This document shows, piece by piece, positions 33,630 to 45,796 of a DNA stretch of 64,000 bases (position 1 is the stretch's first letter; the number at the start of each line of letters is the position of its first letter). The notes beneath the pieces are model-generated. The model worked only from the letters and a program-made list of their open reading frames with translations. It was not told where the DNA came from and searched no databases. The stretch comes from Squalus acanthias (taxonomy: Eukaryota): the NCBI GenBank assembly GCA_030390025.1, contig CM059441.1, positions 496,001 through 560,000 of the forward strand. The letters run 5' to 3'. The position numbers and the translations under genes were made by a program.

Positions 33630-34372
33630 AACATGTGGGTGTCACTGGCAAGGCCAGCATTTATTGTTCATCCCTACTTGCCCTTGAGAAGGTGGTGGTT
33701 CTTGAAGCGCTGCAGTCCGTGTGGTGAAGATACTCCCACAGTGCTGTTAGGTTGGGAGTTCCAGGATTTTGACCCAGCGATGATGAAGGAATGATGATAT
33801 ATTTCCAAGTCAGGATGGTGCGTGACTTGGAGGGGAACTTGGAGGTGGTGGTGTTACCATGTGCCTGCTGCCCTTGTCCTTCTAGGTGGTAGAGGTCGCG
33901 GGTTTGGGAGGTGCTGCCGAAGAAGGCGTGGCGAGTTGCTGCAGTGCATCTTGTAAATGGTACACACTGCAGACACGGTGCGCTGGTGGTAGACTGAGTG
34001 AAAGTTTAATGTGGTAGATGGGTGCCAATCAAACGGGCTGCTTTGTCCTGGATGGTGTCGAGCTTCTTGAGTGTTGTTGGAGTTGCACTCATCCAGTCAA
34101 GTGGAGAGTATTCCGTCACACTCCTTCCTTGTGCCTTGTAGATGGTGGAAAGACTTTGGGGAGTCCGGAGGTGAGACACTCACTGCAGAATACCTAGCCT
34201 CTGACCTGCTCTTGTAGCCACAGTATTTATGTGGCTGGTCCAGTTAAGTTTCTGGTCAATGGTGACACTCAGGATGTTGATGGTGGGGAATTCGACACTG
34301 GTAATGCCATTGAATGTCAAGGGGAGATGGTTAGACTTTCTCTGGTTGGAGATGGTCATTGTCTGGCATTTG
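33630..34372 (-). mobile_element. CR1-group LINE 3' fragment (antisense copy)
   Basis: Reverse complement of ~34836-35580. Confidence 0.85.
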
Positions 34373-35592
34373 CCTTGGTCCAAACATGGGCAAAGCAGCT
34401 GAATTCCAGAGGTGAGGTGCGAATGACTGCCCTTGACATCAAGGCAGCGTTTGACCGAGTGTGGCATCAAGGAGCCCTAGTAAAACTGAAGTCAATGGGA
34501 ATTGGGGGGAAAACTCTCCACTGGCTAGAGTTATACCTAGCACAAAGCAAGATGGTTATAGTGGTTGAAGGTCAATCATCACAGCCCCAGGACTTCGCTG
34601 CAGGAGTTCCTCAGGGAAGTGTCCTAGGCCCAACCATCTTCAGCTGTTTCATCAATGACCTTCCTTCCAACATAAGGTCAGAAATGGGGATGTTCGCTGA
34701 TGACTGCACAGTGTTTCGCGCCATTCGCTACTCCTCAGATAATGAAGCAGTCCATGCCCGCATGCAACAAGACCTGGACGACGTTCAGGCTTGGGCTGAT
34801 AAGTGGCAGGTAACATGCGCGCCACAGAAGTCTCAGGCAATGACTATCTCCAACAAGCGAGAGTCCAACCACCACCCCTTGACATTCAACGACATTATCA
34901 TCACCGAATCCCCCACCATCAACATCCTGGGGGTCACCATTGACCAGAAACTTAACTGGACCAGCCACATAAATACTGTGGCAACAATAGCAGGTCAGAG
35001 GTGAGGTATTCTGCGGTGAGTGTCTCACCTCCTGACTCCCCAAAGCCTTTCCACCATCTACAATACACAAGTAAGGAGTGTGATGGAATACTCTCCACTT
35101 GCCTGGATGAGTGCAGCTCCAACAACACTCAAGAAGCTCGACACCATCCAGGACAAAGCAGCCCGTTTGATTGGCACCCCATCCACCACCTTAAACATTC
35201 ACTCCCTCCACCACCGGCGTACCATGGCTGCAGTGTGTACCATCTACAAGATGCACTGCAGCAACTCGCCAAGGCTTCTTCGGCAGCACCTCCCAAACCC
35301 GCGACCTCTTCCACCTAGAAGGCCAAGGGCAGCAGGTGCATAGGAACACCACCACCTCCAAGTTCCCCTCCAAGTCACACACCATCCTGACTTAGAAATA
35401 TATCGCCGATCCTTCATCGTCGCTGGGTCAAAATCCTGGAACTCCCTACTTAACAACACTGTGGGAGTACCTTCACCACACGGACTGCAGTGGTTCAAGA
35501 AGGCAGCTCACCACCACCTTCTCAAGGGCAACTAGGGATGGGCAATAAAGGCTGGCCCTGCCAGCGACGCCCACATCCCATAAACGAATAAT
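34373..35592 (+). mobile_element. CR1-group LINE, RT to 3' end
   Basis: LDIKAAFDRVWH, GVPQGSVLGP, FADD, ILGVTIDQKLNW. Confidence 0.9.
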
Positions 35593-35599
35593 AAAAGAA

Positions 35600-36077
35600 A
35601 CACTCCTGATTTGTGCCTTGCAGATGGTGGAAAGGCTTTGGGGAGTCGGGATGTGAGACACTTGCCGCAGAATACCCAGCCTCTGACCTGCTCTTGTAGC
35701 CACAGTATTTATGTGGTTGGTCCAGTTAAGTTTCTGGTCAATGGTGACCCCCCAGGATGTTGATGGTGGGTAATTCGACAATGTAATGTCATTGAATGTC
35801 AAGGGGAGATGGTTGACTTTCTCTTGTTGGAGATGGTCATTGTCTGGCATTTGCATGGTGCGAATGTTACTTGTCACTTATCAGCCCAAGCCTGAATGTT
35901 GTCCAGGTCTTGCTGCAGGCAGGCATGGACTGCTCCATTATCTGAGGTGTTTGGAACTGAACACTGTGCAATTATCAGTGAACATCCACACTTCTGACTT
36001 TATGATGGCGGGAAGGTCATTGATGAAGCAGCTGAAGATGGTTGGGCCTAGGACACTGCCCTGAGGAACTCCTGCAG
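35600..36077 (-). mobile_element. CR1-group LINE internal RT fragment (antisense copy)
   Basis: AGVPQGSVLGPTIFSCFINDLP on the minus strand; complementary to ~34598-35075. Confidence 0.85.
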
Positions 36078-36957
36078 CATATGTTTTTTTAGATTTCCCC
36101 ACTGTTTCCTGCTCCTGGTTCATGAACAGTCCCATAGTAATTCGCAGTGCAGTTTATTGACTGACTAATGCATGAATGAGTTGATCCCAGCAATAAACCC
36201 ACCACTGCAAGGCAGAACTTGACTATTGCTCTGACCAGTCACCTGGACTAGAACTGTTGAATCTATCCCAACACAGAGGACTTTGAACTGCTGTTGCATT
36301 TGAAATTCTAAATCGTGACCCTCTGAGCTAGAATGACAGGTCCAGAAGCTGCAGTTATCGAGCTCATCCTCAAAATCAGCAAATGTTAATTGAAATTTAA
36401 TTTATCAAATACATAAAGTGTATGGTGTTATATAATGAAGAAAATACACGTTCTCATTCATTAAGCATTCATGAACGATATCGCCAGGATAGAACAGGTG
36501 GCTCTTTCTTAGAAACAGCATGCAGTAATTATGCTGTCAGATACACGTCTCTAGCAATTTGATGAGATTAGTGTAACTGCACCGTGAGATTGTGCTTCCT
36601 GTTTATCTAAATGGAAAGTAGGAAAGTTTCAAAAGGAATCTTGGCATTAATGACCCAGTTCAATCATGTGTACACACGTGAAACTCACCGGTTCCGCTTT
36701 CAAAATAAGATTGAATGGGGTTGAGAATGAGCCTGGTGTATAACTTTGTTCTTCTTTGATGTTCCTCATATGAACATTACAACTTGTATAAAATATATCA
36801 CAAAACTAGCCCATTGAATGCTTCTGAGGAAAAAAATGACTTAGATGTAGTGAGTATTATGTTTGATTATAAACTGGTGCATCCTCTTTTTCTGAGAGTT
36901 CAAATGACAAAAGCCACATCCCTGAATTTTCTTATTTGTTTCTCTAATATTGCACAG

Positions 36958-37878: not shown

Positions 37879-39045
37879 ATGGGGGCTGTACTGGCGCCAC
37901 CTCGCCCTCCAGGATCTACAGCGGAGGGAGCGTAGGCAGCCAGAAATATGGGAACATGTGCGCAGAGGGATGAGGAGGCCCATCAGGGCTCTCAACAGGA
38001 GATCTTATCCGCCAAGGGTATTCCGAGGGCACTTCTTCTACCTTCAATTAAGTGATGAGCAGTGTATTGGAAGGTTTTGCTTCACCAAGGAGGTGGTCAG
38101 AGAACTCTGCCACGTCCTGCAACCAGACCTCCAGCCTCAGATCAGGGCAAACACAGCTCTCTCAATGGCAGTCAAGGTTACCATCACCCTCAATTTCTTC
38201 GCCAGCAGATCCTTCCAGTCTGCAGCAGGAAACATAGCTAACATCCCACCGTTTGCCATCCATCACTGCATCCAGGAGGTCACTGAGGCTCTCTACAGCA
38301 GGAGAAGGAACTACATTGGCTTCCCAATCATCAGAGAGAAGCAGGCTGAGTGTGCATGTGGCTTTGTCAGGATAGCGGGCTTCCCCATGGTGCAGGGCGC
38401 CATCGACAGTATCCATGTGGCTTTGCGGGCACCGCATAACAATCCGTAGATCATCCGTAACCGCAAAGGCTAACACTCACTTAATGTGCAGTTGATATTC
38501 GACCACACACAGCGAATCCTTAATGTCAATGCCCGCTATCCTGGCAGCAGCCACAATGCCTTCATCCTGTGCCAGACCGGTGTGCCAGTACTCTTCCAGC
38601 CAGCACATCAAGCTCGAGGTGGCTGCTCGGAGACAAGGGCTATCCGCTCTCCACCTGGCTCATGACTCCCCTCCACAACCCCAACACTCCTGCCCAGCAC
38701 TCATATAATGAGAGGCATGCTGTCACCAGGAACATCATTGAGCAGACCATCAGCTTATTGAAGCAATGGTTCCACTGCCTTGACCGCTCATGAGGAACCC
38801 TCCAGTACTCGCCAGAGCAGGTGTCCCATTTTGTGGTGGTCTGCTGCATGCTCCACAACTTGGCCATCATGAGGGTGCAGCCCTTGCCAGCAGGGATTGC
38901 AGGACCACCTCAGGAGGAGCACGAGGCAGAGGAGGATGAGGATGAGGAGGAGGAGGAACAGGAGGAAGGGAGGAGGCAGCGAGGCAATCGGCATTCTGGA
39001 TGGGCTCGAAGGTAACCGGCTCATCAGACTCCAATCCACATGAAT
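37879..39045 (+). pseudogene. Harbinger DDE transposase (HARBI1-like) with stops and frameshifts
   Basis: [47 protein letters not shown], acidic tail. Confidence 0.92.
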
Positions 39046-39182
39046 AAAACCCCAGATCTCCGTAGCTCACCACATCCCCATCATACAATCCCTGTTTCAT
39101 GGCATATCACAGCATCCTCCTGGGCGCATGAGAGAGATCACAAAATATTCCAAAGACCATTAATAAATTTATCTATAAACAT

Positions 39183-39391
39183 TGACATGAATCTTGTATG
39201 AAGTAATACTGGGCGGCCTGCTGGTGGCGCTGTCCAGGGAGAGTATAAATACTCGGGCATGGGCCCAGCTTGCTTTGGACATTCATCAACAGGAACTAGT
39301 GAAGGACACAACTAGATCTCCATGTTGCAAAACAGTTGATTAAAGCTTTGTTTAACGCTTAGACCAAGTGCCTAGTAGTTTTCTTACGTCA
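39183..39391 (+). repeat. 5' LTR (209 bp)
   Basis: 5 differences from the 3' LTR by manual alignment; TATAAATA at 39245; ATTAAA at 39339. Confidence 0.97.
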
Positions 39392-39491
39392 ATTTAATCA
39401 ACTGGACCTGCTCCACGCTCTGAGTGGTTTTGGGAACAGACGGCTATGACTCAAACGGTAGAAGGGAACCAGACGTAGTAATCAATCCATC

Positions 39492-40472
39492 ATGGAGAAA
39501 CTGCTCCAACCCGCCCGTCTTGACCTGGACCCGAATTCACCTACAACTGCTAAGGTATGGAAACACTGGTATCGCACCTTCAGCAACTTCCTCAGGGTGT
39601 GTGGTGAGAATGTTCCTGATAAGTTAAAGATGCTTGCCAATTATGTATCCCCTTATGTGTTTGACTATATCGAAGCCTGTGTAGACTATGACTCCGCTAT
39701 CCGAATACTACAGCAACTATATGTTAAGGCCCCAAACAAAATTTTTGCTCGGCATCTACTGGCCACAACTCGACAACAACCCGGGGTATCACTTGATGAA
39801 TTCCTTCAAAAGCTTTGCAGGCTCAGCAAAGATTGTAATCTCAAGGCTGTCTCAGCTGAGCAGTACCAGGAGGAATTAATTCGTGATTCTTTTATTAATG
39901 GAATTGCGTCTCCCTTCATACGCCAGCGTCTGCTGGAGAATAAAACCCTCGAGTTACGAGCTGCCTATGACCAGGCATATTCTCTGGACTTGGCAAAAAA
40001 AAATGCAGATGCCTATCTTTTACCACGTGCACGGACTGCTGCGACCACTTTTAGTGACTCCTCCGATAAGCCTCAGGCGGAAGCCCTCACTGATGACGAC
40101 TCTATCCTAGCTGATGATGACCCTACCCTAGCGGCATCTTGGCGATCTAAAAGGAAGTGTTTCTTCTGTGGAGGTGCATTTCATTATAAGAAATTTTGTC
40201 CTGCTCGTAATGCAATCTGCAATCATTGCAGTAAGAAAGGTCACTTCTCAAAGTATGTCAGTCAAGAGCCTCTTCTAGGGTTACAGCTGCTCCCTATAAA
40301 ACTGCTCCTCCCCCAAGAGTTACTACTAATGTTACAGCTGTCATTTATAAAACTGCTCCTCCCCCAAGAGCCACTACTAATGTTACAGCTGTCAAGGATA
40401 AAACTGCCCCTCCTCCCATCACAGCTGTTTTCCCCCAAAGCCTGTCCCATGCAGCCACGAAGGTTTCGGTAA
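39492..40472 (+). CDS. gag: Gag with two zinc knuckles; real frame shifts near 40250 into the pol frame
   Basis: CFFCGG..H....C and CNHCSKKGHFSK(VC); the pol frame is stop-free from ~40253. Confidence 0.88.
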   Translation: MEKLLQPARLDLDPNSPTTAKVWKHWYRTFSNFLRVCGENVPDKLKMLANYVSPYVFDYIEACVDYDSAIRILQQLYVKAPNKIFARHLLATTRQQPGVSLDEFLQKLCRLSKDCNLKAVSAEQYQEELIRDSFINGIASPFIRQRLLENKTLELRAAYDQAYSLDLAKKNADAYLLPRARTAATTFSDSSDKPQAEALTDDDSILADDDPTLAASWRSKRKCFFCGGAFHYKKFCPARNAICNHCSKKGHFSKYVSQEPLLGLQLLPIKLLLPQELLLMLQLSFIKLLLPQEPLLMLQLSRIKLPLLPSQLFSPKACPMQPRRFR

Positions 40473-40483
40473 ATGGGCACATT

Positions 40484-43400
40484 TTGAGTGCATTAATCGA
40501 CTCATGCAGCTCTGACAGCTTCATCAGTGAGCAGGCTGTCAGTAAGTTAAAACTACGTATTTACCCCTCGGACAGGGAAATTGCAATGGCTCTGACGACA
40601 CTGACCACGAACTCTTCCGGCTTTTGTCTTGTCGACCTTATTCTCAATGGCCGCACTTATTTCTCTACCCGGCTCGGGGTGCTCAAAAACCTATGCAGTG
40701 ATGTGCTTCTGGGACAGGATTTCCAGAAACAACACAAAAGACTCATTTTCAAGTTTGGAGGAGCAAAGCTGGAGCTTACTATTTCCAAAGTACCGTTTTG
40801 TGCACTTTCGGCGGCTTCGCTCGACGAGCCCTCCTTGTTTGCCAATCTTTCCCCCCGATGTAAGCCCATAGCCACTAAATCACGACGTTTCAGCCAAGAT
40901 GACCTATCCTTTATCGAGGCAGAGATCTCTCGCCTTCTAGCTGACGGTATCATTGAGCCATGTTCATCTTCCTGGCGGGCTCAAGTCGTCGTTGTTAAAA
41001 ATCCTCTGAAGCAACACAAGAAACGTCTTTGCATCAATTACTCGCAAACTATTAACCAGTATACCGACCTGGATGCCTACCCACTACCACGCATCGATGA
41101 CATGGTCAATAACCTTGCTAACTACAAGGTATTTTCAACTTTTGACTTAAAGAGCGCATACCATCAAGTACCGTTAAAGGACTCTGACAAAAAGTATACG
41201 GCTTTTGAGGCCAATGGTCGGCTTTACCAGTTTCGTCGCCTTCCATTCGGGGTCACCAATGGGGTGGCCGTCTTTCAACGGGCAATGGATAGCCTAGTCA
41301 AACAGGAGAACTTAACAGACACTTTTCCATATCTGGATAATATCACCATTGCTGGTCATGACCAGAAGGAGCATGATGCCAACCTCCAGAAATTTCTTGA
41401 CGTTCTCCATCGTCGCAACTTAACCTTAAATGAGTCCAAATCTGTGAAATCAGTACCATCAGTCAACATCCTTGGCTACTGGGTGGGCAATGGTGTCATC
41501 AAACCGGATCCGGAGCGACTTCGTCCGCTTCAGCAGCTCCCTCCTCCTACGAATCTCAGCTCTCTTCGTCGGGCCCTCGGCATGTTCGCCTATTATGCGA
41601 AGTGGATACCTCACTTTTCCGACAAGATCCAGCCCCTGCTTCACGCGAAGTCATTTCCGTTGGAGGCGAGGGCTATTTCAGCTTTCGACCTCCTCAAGCA
41701 ACAACTGGAAAAAGCCGCGCTTCATTCCATCGATGAAAATCTCCCTTTCGTGGTCGAGTGCGATGCATCGGAGGTGGCGATCTCGGCTACCTTGAATCAA
41801 GGCGGTCGACCCGTTGCATTTCTGTCTAGAACTTTTCAGGATAGCGAGCTCCATTATCCTCCTGTCGATAAGAAAGCTACGGCTATCATCAAAGCAGTAT
41901 GTAAATGGAGTCATTTTCTCGCTCGTCGCCATTTCACGCTCATAACCGATCAGCGCTCAGTGGCCTTTATGCTGGATAACCGGAAACGCACTAAAATTAA
42001 GAATAACAAAATACAGCTCTGGAGGATGGAATTGGCCGCCTTTGGCTACACCATACAGTATCGACCCGGCAAGGAGAATGTAGCCCCGGATACCCTCACA
42101 CGTGCATTCTGCTCTTCCATGTCAACTTCAACTCTTGTGAATCTTCATACTGACTTATGCCATCCTGGCGTTACCCGTATGTTGCACTTTGTGCGATCTA
42201 AAAATCTCCCATTTTCTACGGAAGACGTGAAAAGAACATGCTCCACTTGTAGAATTTGCGCGGAATTAAAACCGCAATTCTTCCGTCCATCGGATGGCTC
42301 GCTCATACACGCTACACAGCCTATGCAGCGACTCAGCATTGACTTTAAAGGGCCATTGCCTTCCTCAACGCGAAACACCCACTTGCTTACTATGGTGGAC
42401 GAATATTCACGCTTTCCCTTTGCTTTCCCCTGTCCCAATATGCTTACTTCCACAGTGATCAAATGCCTCAATCAGGTCTTTTCCCTTTGCGGTACGGCCA
42501 ATTTCATCCACTCTGATCGGGGTCCCTCCTTCATGTCAAGCGAACTCAAAAGTTATCTTTCCCAACGGGGAATCGCCACAAGTAAAACGACACCATATCA
42601 TCCTATTGGAAATGGACAGGTTGAGAGATACAACGCTATCATTTGGAATGCTGTTCGTCTTGCACTGAGGTCACGCAATCTACCAGACCAGCAGTGGGAA
42701 ACTATGCTCCCTGATGTGTTGCATTCCACTAGGTCTCTTCTTTCTACATCCACCAATGTTACTCCTCACAAACGATTCTTCGGGTTCCAGCGTCGCTCCA
42801 TTCATGGGACGTCCCTACCATCATGGTTGGCAGTTCCTGGCTCCGTGCTGCTCCGAAGATTCGTCCGATCCTCCAAGAGTGATCCCCTCGTCGACGAGGT
42901 GGAACTAACGGATGTCAATCCTACATATGCGTACGTGCAGTACCCTGATGGCCGGGAGTCCACAGTTTCACTTCGGGATCTGGCTCCCTGCCCAACCGGT
43001 CCCACGGATCCAATCGATAGAGAGATCCGTATTAACGACGCCAATACTCCACGCTCCTCCGAGGATGACGCCCTACCCGGGACATCAAGGGATCTGCCAG
43101 CTACTCCGCTGGATCAACCCGGGGAACAGAGCGCTCCCCGCGGGATGGCCACCCGAAGCCAGGATGCCGGTCAATCACCAGCTACTGAGCAGGATGCAGC
43201 CAGCTCTGCGCCGGTGGGGACCCGCACCCGGAGCCACGATCTCCCCCAGTCCCCCTCAGGTCGATCCAGGCGACACGGGCTCTGCCAGCCCGCCAGTACG
43301 AACCAAGCGACCCAGGGACCAAAACACGGTCTGAGGAGACGTGCCTTCCGGCCTCCAACGGAAATCCAAGCGACTGCATCTATTCTTAGTCCGGCTAATT

Positions 43401-43579
43401 CGGTAGAAGGAAGCCGTCGGACTTCCAATCTTTCAGGCGGGAAGAATGACATGAATCTTGTAAGAAGTAATACTGGGCGGCCTGCTGGTGGCGCTGTCCA
43501 GGGAGAGTATAAATACTCGGGCATGGGCCCAGCTTGCTTTGGACATTCCTCAACAGGAACTAGTGAAGGACACAACTAG
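40484..43579 (+). CDS. pol: Pol polyprotein (aspartic protease, RT, RNase H, DDE integrase)
   Basis: LIDSCS; FDLKSAYHQ, LPFG, YLDN; ECDAS; HHCC, IDFKGP, HSDRG, GQVER; ORF runs into the 3' LTR. Confidence 0.95.
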   Translation: MSALIDSCSSDSFISEQAVSKLKLRIYPSDREIAMALTTLTTNSSGFCLVDLILNGRTYFSTRLGVLKNLCSDVLLGQDFQKQHKRLIFKFGGAKLELTISKVPFCALSAASLDEPSLFANLSPRCKPIATKSRRFSQDDLSFIEAEISRLLADGIIEPCSSSWRAQVVVVKNPLKQHKKRLCINYSQTINQYTDLDAYPLPRIDDMVNNLANYKVFSTFDLKSAYHQVPLKDSDKKYTAFEANGRLYQFRRLPFGVTNGVAVFQRAMDSLVKQENLTDTFPYLDNITIAGHDQKEHDANLQKFLDVLHRRNLTLNESKSVKSVPSVNILGYWVGNGVIKPDPERLRPLQQLPPPTNLSSLRRALGMFAYYAKWIPHFSDKIQPLLHAKSFPLEARAISAFDLLKQQLEKAALHSIDENLPFVVECDASEVAISATLNQGGRPVAFLSRTFQDSELHYPPVDKKATAIIKAVCKWSHFLARRHFTLITDQRSVAFMLDNRKRTKIKNNKIQLWRMELAAFGYTIQYRPGKENVAPDTLTRAFCSSMSTSTLVNLHTDLCHPGVTRMLHFVRSKNLPFSTEDVKRTCSTCRICAELKPQFFRPSDGSLIHATQPMQRLSIDFKGPLPSSTRNTHLLTMVDEYSRFPFAFPCPNMLTSTVIKCLNQVFSLCGTANFIHSDRGPSFMSSELKSYLSQRGIATSKTTPYHPIGNGQVERYNAIIWNAVRLALRSRNLPDQQWETMLPDVLHSTRSLLSTSTNVTPHKRFFGFQRRSIHGTSLPSWLAVPGSVLLRRFVRSSKSDPLVDEVELTDVNPTYAYVQYPDGRESTVSLRDLAPCPTGPTDPIDREIRINDANTPRSSEDDALPGTSRDLPATPLDQPGEQSAPRGMATRSQDAGQSPATEQDAASSAPVGTRTRSHDLPQSPSGRSRRHGLCQPASTNQATQGPKHGLRRRAFRPPTEIQATASILSPANSVEGSRRTSNLSGGKNDMNLVRSNTGRPAGGAVQGEYKYSGMGPACFGHSSTGTSEGHN

Positions 43580-43655
43580 ATCTCCATGTTGGTAAACAGT
43601 TGATTAAAGCTTTATTTAACGCTTAGACCAAGTGCCTAGTAGTTTTCTTACGTCA
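43447..43655 (+). repeat. 3' LTR (209 bp)
   Basis: Direct repeat of 39183-39391. Confidence 0.97.
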
Positions 43656-43872
43656 AACATATCACACATATCACATGAATTCTAATAACTAATGACCCTT
43701 GTGCCTGCCATAGTTGAATAGCTGTCATTGTGTGCAAGGTGTGAGATGTGGGTGAGTGTTGCTAGGTAGAGATTGTTGGTGGGTGAGTGCTGGGGGTGTG
43801 GTGCTTTTGGGCAGTGTGTGAAGCTTGTGGTACAGATGGTGGTATGTAGGATTTATTGAAGCATTCAATCAC

Positions 43873-44114
43873 CCTGACCACCCGAGTGAGGTTGTTAAAT
43901 TTCTTCCTGCACTGTGTGTGGGTCCTGGGGACCACAATGCTGCCCAAGACGTGCTGTGCTACCTCCCTCTACATAGCGTGGAAGGCTTGAGGCGAGAGCC
44001 TCCTGCCACTTGCCGGGTAGAGCACTGCCCTCCGTCTCTCCACAGCGAAAACCAATGCCTCCAATGCTTCATCGGAGAATCTCAGGCTCTCTCCCTGGGG
44101 CATGGACTTGCCAT
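43873..44114 (-). pseudogene. Myb/SANT exon 1 of Harbinger element 3 (downstream exons deleted near 43700)
   Basis: RFSDEALEALV.AVE...RTHTQCRKKFNNL then GT donor; two in-frame stops; homologous to 63527-63768. Confidence 0.85.
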
Positions 44115-44464
44115 GAGTACACCTGGCTCAGTCCTCCGGCTCCTTCTCCTTGTTCTGCTTCTGCTTACTGAGGCAGCTGCAATGCTGAGAATGAGGTGAT
44201 GCAGCATCAATGAATCTCCCCTTTAAGTAGTGAAAATAGCCTGTGGCAATGATGAGTTGCAATAAGACTGCACCCGATATTGGTCCACCCTTTAATTCTA
44301 ATGCCAATGAGCTTGGGTTTTAACTTGAACTTATCTCTTCCTATCTCGACTCTATTTTTTCTCCCCTTGTCCAGTCTCTTCCCACCTACATCCGCGACTC
44401 TTCCGACGCCCTCCGCCATTTTAACAGTTTCCAGTTTCTCGGCCCCAACCGTCTCCTCTTCACT

Positions 44465-45796
44465 ATGGACGTACAATCCCTCTACACCTCCATTCCCCAC
44501 CAGGATGGCTTGAGGGCGCTCCGCTTCTTCCTTGAACAGAGGCCCAACCAGTCCCCATCCACCACCACCCTCCTCCGCCTGGCTGAACTTGTTCTCACAT
44601 TGAACAACTTCTCCTTTGACTCTACCCATTTCCTCCAAATTAAAGGTGTTGCTATGGGTACCCGCATGGGTCCTAGCTATGCCTGCCTTTTCGTGGGATA
44701 TGTGGAACACTCTTTGTTCCAGTCCTACTCGGGTCCCCTCCCTCACCTCTTTTTCCAGTACATTGATGACTGTATCGGTGCCGTCTCCTGCTCTCGCCCT
44801 GAACTAGAACATTTCAGTCACTATGCTTCCAATTTCCACCCTTCCCTCACCTTCACATGGTCCATCTCCGACTCTTTCCTTCCCTTCCTCGACTTCTCCA
44901 TCTCCATCTCTGGGGATAGGTTATTGACTAACATTCACTACAAGCCCACTGACTCCCACAGCTACCTGGACTACACTTCCTCCCACCCCGCCTCCTGTAA
45001 GGACTCTATTCCATTCTCCCAGTTTCTCCGTCTCCGCCGCATCTGCTCTGATGATGCCACCTTCCATATCAGTGCTTCCGACATGTCTTCCTTTTTCCTC
45101 AACCGAGGATTCCCCTCTACCGTGGTCGACACGGCCCTCGACCGTGTCCGTTCTATCTCCCGCACTTCTGCCCTCACCCCTGCCCCTCCCTCCCGGAACC
45201 ACGATAGGGTTCCCCTTGTCCTCACCTTTGACCCCACCAGCCTCCACATTCAACGGATCATCCTCCGCCATTTCCGCCACCTCCAGCGTGATCCCACCAC
45301 CAAACACATCTTCCCCTCACCTCCGCTTTCAGCATTCCGCAGGGACCGCTCCCTCCGCAACACCCTAGTCCACTCCTCTACCACCCCCAGCACCCCTTCC
45401 CCTTCGCCCGGCACCTTCCCATGCACGCGCAGGAGATGCAATACATGCCCTTATACCTCCCCTCTTCCCACTGTCCAGGGCCCCAAACACCCCTTCCAGG
45501 TGAAACAGCGATTTACTTGTACTTCCTGCAATTTAGTATACTGTATTCGCTGCTCACGATGTGGTCTCCTCTACATTGGGGAGACCAAACGCAGATTGGG
45601 TGACCGCTTTGCGGAACACCTCCGTTCAGTCCGTAAGGGGGACCCCGAGCTCCCGGTCGCCTGTCACTTTAATTCACCGCTTCACTCCCACTCTGACCTC
45701 ACCGTCCTCGGCCTATTACACTGTTCCACGGAAGCGCAGCTTTCGTTTAGGCACGCTACAGCCCTCTGGACTCAATATCGAGTTCAACAATTTTAG
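44465..45796 (+). CDS. Penelope RT C-terminal part + GIY-YIG endonuclease (truncated)
   Basis: DVQSLYTSIP, GVAMGTRMGP, YIDD, YKPT..HSYL...S.HP, LVYCIRC..CGLLYIGET.R.L..RF.EH. Confidence 0.92.
   Translation: MDVQSLYTSIPHQDGLRALRFFLEQRPNQSPSTTTLLRLAELVLTLNNFSFDSTHFLQIKGVAMGTRMGPSYACLFVGYVEHSLFQSYSGPLPHLFFQYIDDCIGAVSCSRPELEHFSHYASNFHPSLTFTWSISDSFLPFLDFSISISGDRLLTNIHYKPTDSHSYLDYTSSHPASCKDSIPFSQFLRLRRICSDDATFHISASDMSSFFLNRGFPSTVVDTALDRVRSISRTSALTPAPPSRNHDRVPLVLTFDPTSLHIQRIILRHFRHLQRDPTTKHIFPSPPLSAFRRDRSLRNTLVHSSTTPSTPSPSPGTFPCTRRRCNTCPYTSPLPTVQGPKHPFQVKQRFTCTSCNLVYCIRCSRCGLLYIGETKRRLGDRFAEHLRSVRKGDPELPVACHFNSPLHSHSDLTVLGLLHCSTEAQLSFRHATALWTQYRVQQF

Follow-up and report, generated by a model that had tools for sequence, protein, structure and literature searches.

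Structure of the Element and Its Surroundings

The window, meaning the whole 64,000-nucleotide stretch of Squalus acanthias DNA that was analysed, contains a Ty3/Gypsy LTR retrotransposon, recognised by its TG...CA LTRs, its target duplication, its polypurine tract, and the order protease, reverse transcriptase (RT), RNase H, integrase. Its features are the following:

39178-39182, + strand: target-site duplication, 5' copy, AACAT, 5 bp, repeated at 43656-43660
39183-43655, + strand: whole Gypsy element, 4.47 kb
39183-39391, + strand: 5' LTR, 209 bp, TG...CA, with 5 mismatches to the 3' LTR
39244-39249, + strand: TATA-like box of putative function, which would put a transcription start near 39275
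39333-39344, + strand: arm of 12 nt, the putative self-primer
39339-39344, + strand: ATTAAA, a poly(A)-signal-like hexamer within the arm
39345-39369, + strand: local hairpin, with an outer stem of 39345-48 paired with 39366-69
39392, + strand: spacer of one base (A) from the LTR end to the primer site
39393-39404, + strand: primer-binding position, exact complement of the arm
39492-40262, + strand: gag, carrying an intact zinc knuckle and a broken one; in this copy, its frame changes near the end
40235-43446, + strand: pol, encoding protease, RT, RNase H and integrase, without a chromodomain
43435-43446, + strand: polypurine tract
43447-43655, + strand: 3' LTR, 209 bp, whose arm and hexamer (43597-43608) have no pairing partner
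43656-43660, + strand: target-site duplication, 3' copy

Regarding its proteins, Ty3 RT was the best match among solved structures for the RT of the element, and neither a chromodomain nor SH3_Tf2-1 was found in its Pol; none of the 120 long relatives that matched best has a chromodomain among its precomputed domains either, so that the absence of this domain, claimed in the first-pass annotation, holds. The same annotation counted two zinc knuckles in Gag: the first is a full CCHC, but the second is interrupted in this copy by the gag/pol frame change. The window copy is decaying, because to this frame change it adds an acidic RNase H position that differs from that of its relatives. At the gag/protease junction (40263-40415), three tandem 51-nt repeats, 76-78% alike, encode a spacer rich in proline and threonine. 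Finally, the TATAAA, previously placed at 39245, actually starts at 39244.

As for the surroundings, the element sits within a decayed PIF/Harbinger-type DNA transposon (window 37880-39012, + strand, and 43765-43968, - strand), whose left side keeps pieces of a DDE_Tnp_4 transposase and whose right side matches Myb/SANT-like sequence weakly. Just to the right of the element, a frame at 44324-45796 (+ strand) combines an RT with a GIY-YIG domain (Penelope-like), and to its left an inverted and duplicated LINE RT fragment occupies 34020-36078.

Complementarity Between the LTR and the Primer-Binding Position

The letters bear out the observation from which the analysis started: one A after the end of the 5' LTR, positions 39393-39404 (TTTAATCAACTG) are the exact reverse complement of positions 39333-39344 (CAGTTGATTAAA) inside the LTR. 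The LTR 12-mer is found again in the 3' LTR at 43597, as had been stated, and both words are otherwise absent from the window. The arm begins with an initiator-like CAGTT and ends with ATTAAA, the sole AATAAA/ATTAAA of the LTR. No TGG follows the 5' LTR directly; the first-pass annotation had reported no TGG-initiated tRNA-type site at this place, and the same holds for all 26 related families with a duplex described below (TGG at the site in 0/26).

Chance as the source of this match is excluded: 4 of 20,000 dinucleotide-shuffled LTRs matched the 20 post-LTR bases over 12 nt, and 10 of 3180 window positions reached at least 12 by the same match statistic. Folding of the leader places 39333-39344 on 39393-39404 with a pair probability of 0.77-1.0 for any assumed upstream start. 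With regard to the sequence signature of self-priming (LTR complementarity of at least 10 bp, at a site 0-5 bp after the LTR), the element has 12 bp, a 1-nt spacer, and no TGG.

Copies in the Host Genome

The host genome (3.7 Gb) holds thousands of candidate copies, and two families coexist in it, with first-look counts of 2324 candidates for the older family of the window copy and 1259 for a sister family. Among the 30 closest copies of the window family, all 12 pairs are intact in 26 and one difference occurs in 4; departure from the common letter is 0.56% in the arm, 0.28% in the site and 1.1-2.8% in the flanking stretches, a weak comparison given that the copies were chosen by similarity. 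The sister family (Gag 77% and RT-RNase H 91% identical to the window copy) has its own 13-bp duplex in 30 of 30 copies, and its twelfth pair is changed from C-G to A-T, a compensatory change. Another Gypsy family of the same genome has a TGG site and a self-match of just 5 nt. Two distant Gag queries were used to look for further families of this kind in the genome, and their top matches appear to be the same two families, judging by frame lengths and by a few individual loci.

Some side observations concern these copies. The sister family (L031-L034, L191-L220) is very young, with LTR pairs 99-100% identical and a single 1313-aa frame. Two single copies are damaged at the duplex: L037 lost the arm of its 5' LTR by deletion, and in L038 the primer site and the start of gag are deleted. 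Summed contig depth over the LTR (39183-39391) is about 100x that of the internal region, a hint, from a poor measure, that solo LTRs are numerous.

Covariation Across Related Families

Relatives of Gag and RT carry the names of cnidarians, crustaceans, molluscs, a crinoid/echinoderms, a nematode, hagfish, a ray, and a catshark; none was found among the viral contigs searched. When the best 80 of 156 metagenome loci and the two own families were grouped at 85% Gag identity, 40 families resulted; L055 was left out as its upstream sequence is missing, and 39 families with upstream sequence were usable. The Gags of these related families are 38-77% identical, the median pairwise identity between families is 47%, and the counts given here are not independent events because the families share ancestry. 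A duplex was scored when its perfect pairing began 0-2 bases past a CA that lay no more than 160 nt from gag, and each family was represented by its best locus.

An anchored perfect duplex of 11-18 bp was present in 26 of the 39 families, versus 7 of 1052 control positions; counted per locus, it was present in 46 of 76. Among the 26 families the 11-mers are of 20 kinds, each matching the LTR of its own family by Watson-Crick pairs, and a site matched the LTR of another family at 11 or more positions in 18 of 650 cross-family comparisons. The covariation between LTR 12-mer and primer site that the first-pass annotation had proposed to look for is thus strong. When the arms were anchored by motif instead of by pairing, positions -5 to -13 (-12 being the 39333-39404 pair here) were paired in 20-26 of 28 families versus 8-16 expected, in a test that took the first qualifying locus per family, used motifs picked after seeing the data, and retained 4 of 28 rows that look mis-anchored. 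The remaining 13 of 39 families have fewer than 11 perfect pairs: in six of them (L079, L081, L095, L102, L109, and L113) the same layout is recognisable but has a mismatch or a shortened arm, and in the other seven, whose LTR ends could not be placed, no such layout is seen. At the level of the sequences, the pairing is confirmed as real and strongly selected.

Geometry of the Duplex

The inner end of the duplex is fixed, with a 1-nt spacer after CA in 25 of 26 families, the LTR ends being verified against a 3' LTR copy in about seven of them. According to the logic of LTR replication, the 3' end of the primer must be fixed, and the inner end matches this.

As for the outer end, the pair at -12 is kept in 25 of 26 families versus 7.2 expected, and the pair at -13 in 21 of 26 versus 12.8 expected, both being positions that were not selected on; pairing at -14 and -15 is marginal, and from -16 onward it is at chance level. 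Judging from these counts, the selected duplex is 12-13 bp or more, longer than 11. The RNA must often include the bases at -12/-13, because those pairs are kept beyond expectation, and the 11-nt primer with a start at 39334 that had been suggested is too short.

A hairpin of at least 4 bp begins at the predicted cut (39344/39345) in 20 of 26 families versus 5.4 expected; here it corresponds to 39345-39369, with a pair probability of 0.58-0.65. An Rfam search returned nothing near a gathering score.

Proposed Self-Priming Mechanism

Taken with the analogy to Tf1, these sequence patterns make Tf1-like self-priming the best reading of the site, and we consider it likely. The primer site, separated from the LTR by a single base, occupies the place to which a primer has to bind, and the leader is computed to fold the arm (39333-39344) onto it (39393-39404). 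The RNase H of the element, whose domain is present in Pol and whose cleavage is predicted, would then cut at 39344/39345, at the foot of the conserved hairpin, so that the 3'-OH produced is paired with the site's first base. RT would copy the spacer, U5, and the remaining R, and then jump to the 3' R; the primer would be copied into the plus strand, renewing the site from the LTR in each cycle. The fold would incidentally hide the 5' poly(A) signal and leave the 3' signal free. The renewal of the site from the LTR by copying of the primer is proposed as the reason both for the covariation and for the outer limit of about 13-15 bases. In Tf1, the primer is reportedly not removed.

In this scheme, the start site, the cut, and the extension are modelled on Tf1, as described in three reports (PMC7175516, PMC4600332, PMC5341516), and they are joined to the position, pairing, and covariation seen in the DNA. 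Of the self-priming signature put forward in the first-pass annotation, the covariation, the lack of a tRNA-3'-end site, and the lack of a chromodomain stand, but the 11-nt primer from 39334 and the hiding role as it was written do not.

Transcription Start and Length of the Leader

If the primer is copied into the plus strand, transcription at or just before the arm would follow. The initiator-like A, G, and T at -11, -10, and -9 are conserved in 18, 22, and 19 of 26 families, respectively. Speaking against a start at the arm, most of the outermost paired bases are T, with which Pol II initiates poorly. A TATAWA motif was seen in 8 of 26 families, scattered from -70 to -199 and never about 30 nt before the arm (four families have little upstream sequence). 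In both own-genome families a TATA box lies about 100 nt upstream of the arm end, a distance that is not fixed in other families, and it suggests a start near 39275 and not at the arm. The motif evidence is mixed: the candidate starts are the arm itself or the bases just ahead of it and, for the two families of this genome, the vicinity of 39275. Two further readings were rejected: a splice acceptor at the conserved AG, as 12 of 26 families have A or G just before it and the pairing extends further upstream, and a downstream promoter element at +28, matched in this element alone (1/26).

Self-priming could also proceed from a long leader or in trans, with a start near 39275 and the arm cut internally, from the 3' R copy, or from a second packaged RNA. 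This version, which overlaps the best explanation, agrees with the TATA box of the two own-genome families, with a duplex that forms equally well from 39275, and with pairing that extends past the initiator-like A. Against it stand the rarity and scattered distances of TATAWA, the conservation of the initiator-like letters, and a complementarity that ends at 13-15 bases, as if the 5' end of the primer were there; on balance, it is rather unlikely.

Possible Hiding of the Poly(A) Signal

In HIV-1, a hairpin occludes the 5' poly(A) signal, and the duplex could be a mere regulatory hairpin of this type, the primer being something else that is bound elsewhere or after unfolding. A canonical AATAAA/ATTAAA does end the arm in 19 of 26 families, and the partner exists for the 5' LTR copy only. 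However, 7 of 26 families lack a canonical hexamer where the arm ends and still have a duplex of 11-17 perfect pairs, including one with TGAAGA paired with TCTTCA. In addition, occlusion needs no partner that starts one base after CA, yet this is the arrangement in 25 of 26 families; the LTR end keeps no TGG site, and Gag often begins 3-30 nt from the duplex. Such a hiding-only function appears improbable. Concealment of the signal, as the first-pass annotation proposed it, is plausible in this element but not general across the families; judging from the sequences, it may be a side benefit of the duplex and cannot be its only job.

A Host tRNA as Possible Primer

A last candidate for the primer is a fragment of a tRNA-Ile-type host tRNA that runs from its 5' end to the D-loop; the match to the LTR would then be a by-product. 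The first-pass annotation regarded a good tRNA match to the post-LTR sequence as evidence against self-priming, and such a match exists in part for this copy, since the D-loop of tRNA-Ile pairs with its site through one or two G-U pairs; no tRNA 3'-end site was found, and most families favour their own arm. In the genome, 84 sites match the wobble-tolerant complement of the site within a D-arm context; 6 of 12 sites fetched from gene clusters and chromosomes were called tRNA-Ile, and 0 of 12 others were called tRNA. The best gene reaches -15.2 kcal/mol versus -14.0 for the arm in this copy. The comparison comprised seven sequences of three isotypes from this host, with free-strand energies; it was limited to three isotypes because the Rfam tRNA search over 16 loci returned Lys and Cys only.

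Against this, in 22 of 26 families none of the seven host tRNA sequences pairs as well as the own arm, the letters of the site change along with the LTR and not with a tRNA, and the twelfth-pair change of the sister family follows the LTR and breaks the tRNA-Ile match, all of which renders a tRNA-fragment primer highly improbable. It was also observed that the arm and the two bases after it (39333-39346) resemble the D-arm of host tRNA-Ile (L179-L186) at 12-13 of 14 letters. This likeness is probably a chance product of the initiator and poly(A) motifs, though it may instead go back to a tRNA-fragment primer site.

Phylogenetic Placement

The RT-RNase H trees were both quick searches, with chromovirus references taken from protein searches and no row named as Tf1, Tf2, sushi, Mag, or SURL. 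All signature-bearing families form one long-stemmed clade with a support of 99-100. The nearest group holds a Mag-like family with a TGG site and a PNMA-like Gag (support 92, not starred), and the RT of the element is about 31% identical to that of this TGG-site family. In the best tree, the clade lies outside the chromoviruses, apart from nine chromodomain- or SH3-bearing rows of algal, plant, and fungal origin; forcing it together with these rows costs 14.5 log units with a p-AU of 0.183, so the AU test does not reject sisterhood. The separate lineage that the first-pass annotation suspected holds as a clade, with a support of 100, but an origin independent from Tf1/sushi is not established by this test. 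By name, the clade may correspond to a MolGy or LGF group.

SH3_Tf2-1 matches in the own genome were considered as a chromovirus outgroup and rejected, being retrovirus-like and carrying a second RNase H. The loci L128-L132 hold endogenous elements that resemble retroviruses; their pol frames are long and open, and they have a second RNase H and an integrase with an SH3-type end.

Comparison with Known Systems

The element resembles Tf1/Tf2 of Schizosaccharomyces pombe, Tj1, and the Tf1/sushi chromoviruses in being a Ty3/Gypsy element whose site beside the 5' LTR complements its own LTR, with a similar duplex length. Unlike Tf1/sushi, it has two Gag knuckles and neither a chromodomain nor SH3_Tf2-1, its duplex is 12-13 bp or more, the poly(A) hexamer is part of its arm, a local hairpin at the predicted cut takes the place of the pretzel, and in the best tree its clade lies outside the chromodomain-bearing RTs. 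The Tf1 primer is the very 5' end of the mRNA. RNase H of Tf1 cuts between bases 11 and 12 (PMC7175516), and the RNA forms a three-duplex pretzel in which sequences flanking the site on either side pair with LTR sequence downstream of the primer, both of these duplexes being needed (PMC10085805). In the 26 families, a simple contiguous-stem test for Tf1-type flanking duplexes (stems of at least 5 bp) gave 9 versus 10.4 and 13 versus 12.8 expected, so that neither duplex was enriched.

Short LTRs, a single gag-pol frame, and animal hosts are shared with the Mag lineage (A, B, and C clades; SURL, Steamer), and we take the 5-bp duplication and the double knuckle to be Mag-like as well. Steamer and the neighbouring C-clade branches have a tRNA-Leu site starting with TGG (PMC8905726); unlike these Mag C-clade elements (SURL, Steamer), none of the 26 related families has such a site.

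For the TAR lineage (Houba, Osr-1) of plant Ty1/copia elements and for the Tcn1 chromoviruses, self-priming has been deduced from a complementarity of at least 10 bp located 0-5 bp after the LTR (PMC6317226). The element follows the same rule; TAR and Tcn1 differ from it in belonging to another superfamily or clade and in having plant hosts. They show that the signature already spans unrelated lineages.

Significance

To our knowledge, self-priming has been proven in fission-yeast Tf1 only. Some Gypsy families of marine invertebrates are reportedly labelled as self-primed in Repbase; if such a label exists, the signature is on record and the structural details alone would be new. The literature, in the parts available, ties the self-priming signature to Tf1/sushi, Tcn1, and the plant TAR copia elements, and self-priming in a non-chromoviral animal Gypsy clade was not found in the portions available of the papers covered, Repbase lying outside the search (PMC3601003, PMC6317226, PMC6934838, PMC4600332, PMC6238403, PMC7175516, PMC10085805, PMC5341516, PMC5006619, PMC8905726, PMC2864245, PMC8556966, PMC5443660, PMC8220671).

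In its fullest form, the proposal can be advanced tentatively: a large, chromodomain-less animal clade may have evolved self-priming independently of Tf1/sushi and with a cutting signal of its own, with a single element of 12-15 bases serving as initiator, poly(A) signal, and primer, an RNase H cut at the foot of a stacked hairpin, and a site rewritten in every cycle. If this is true, a widespread, high-copy animal clade would use the same logic with a different RNA fold, implying that tRNA-free priming is common in animals, and it would offer a second system for the study of how RNase H chooses its cut in an RNA-RNA duplex. Annotation software that relies on a tRNA site may also overlook such elements, and they would escape control by tRNA 3' fragments.
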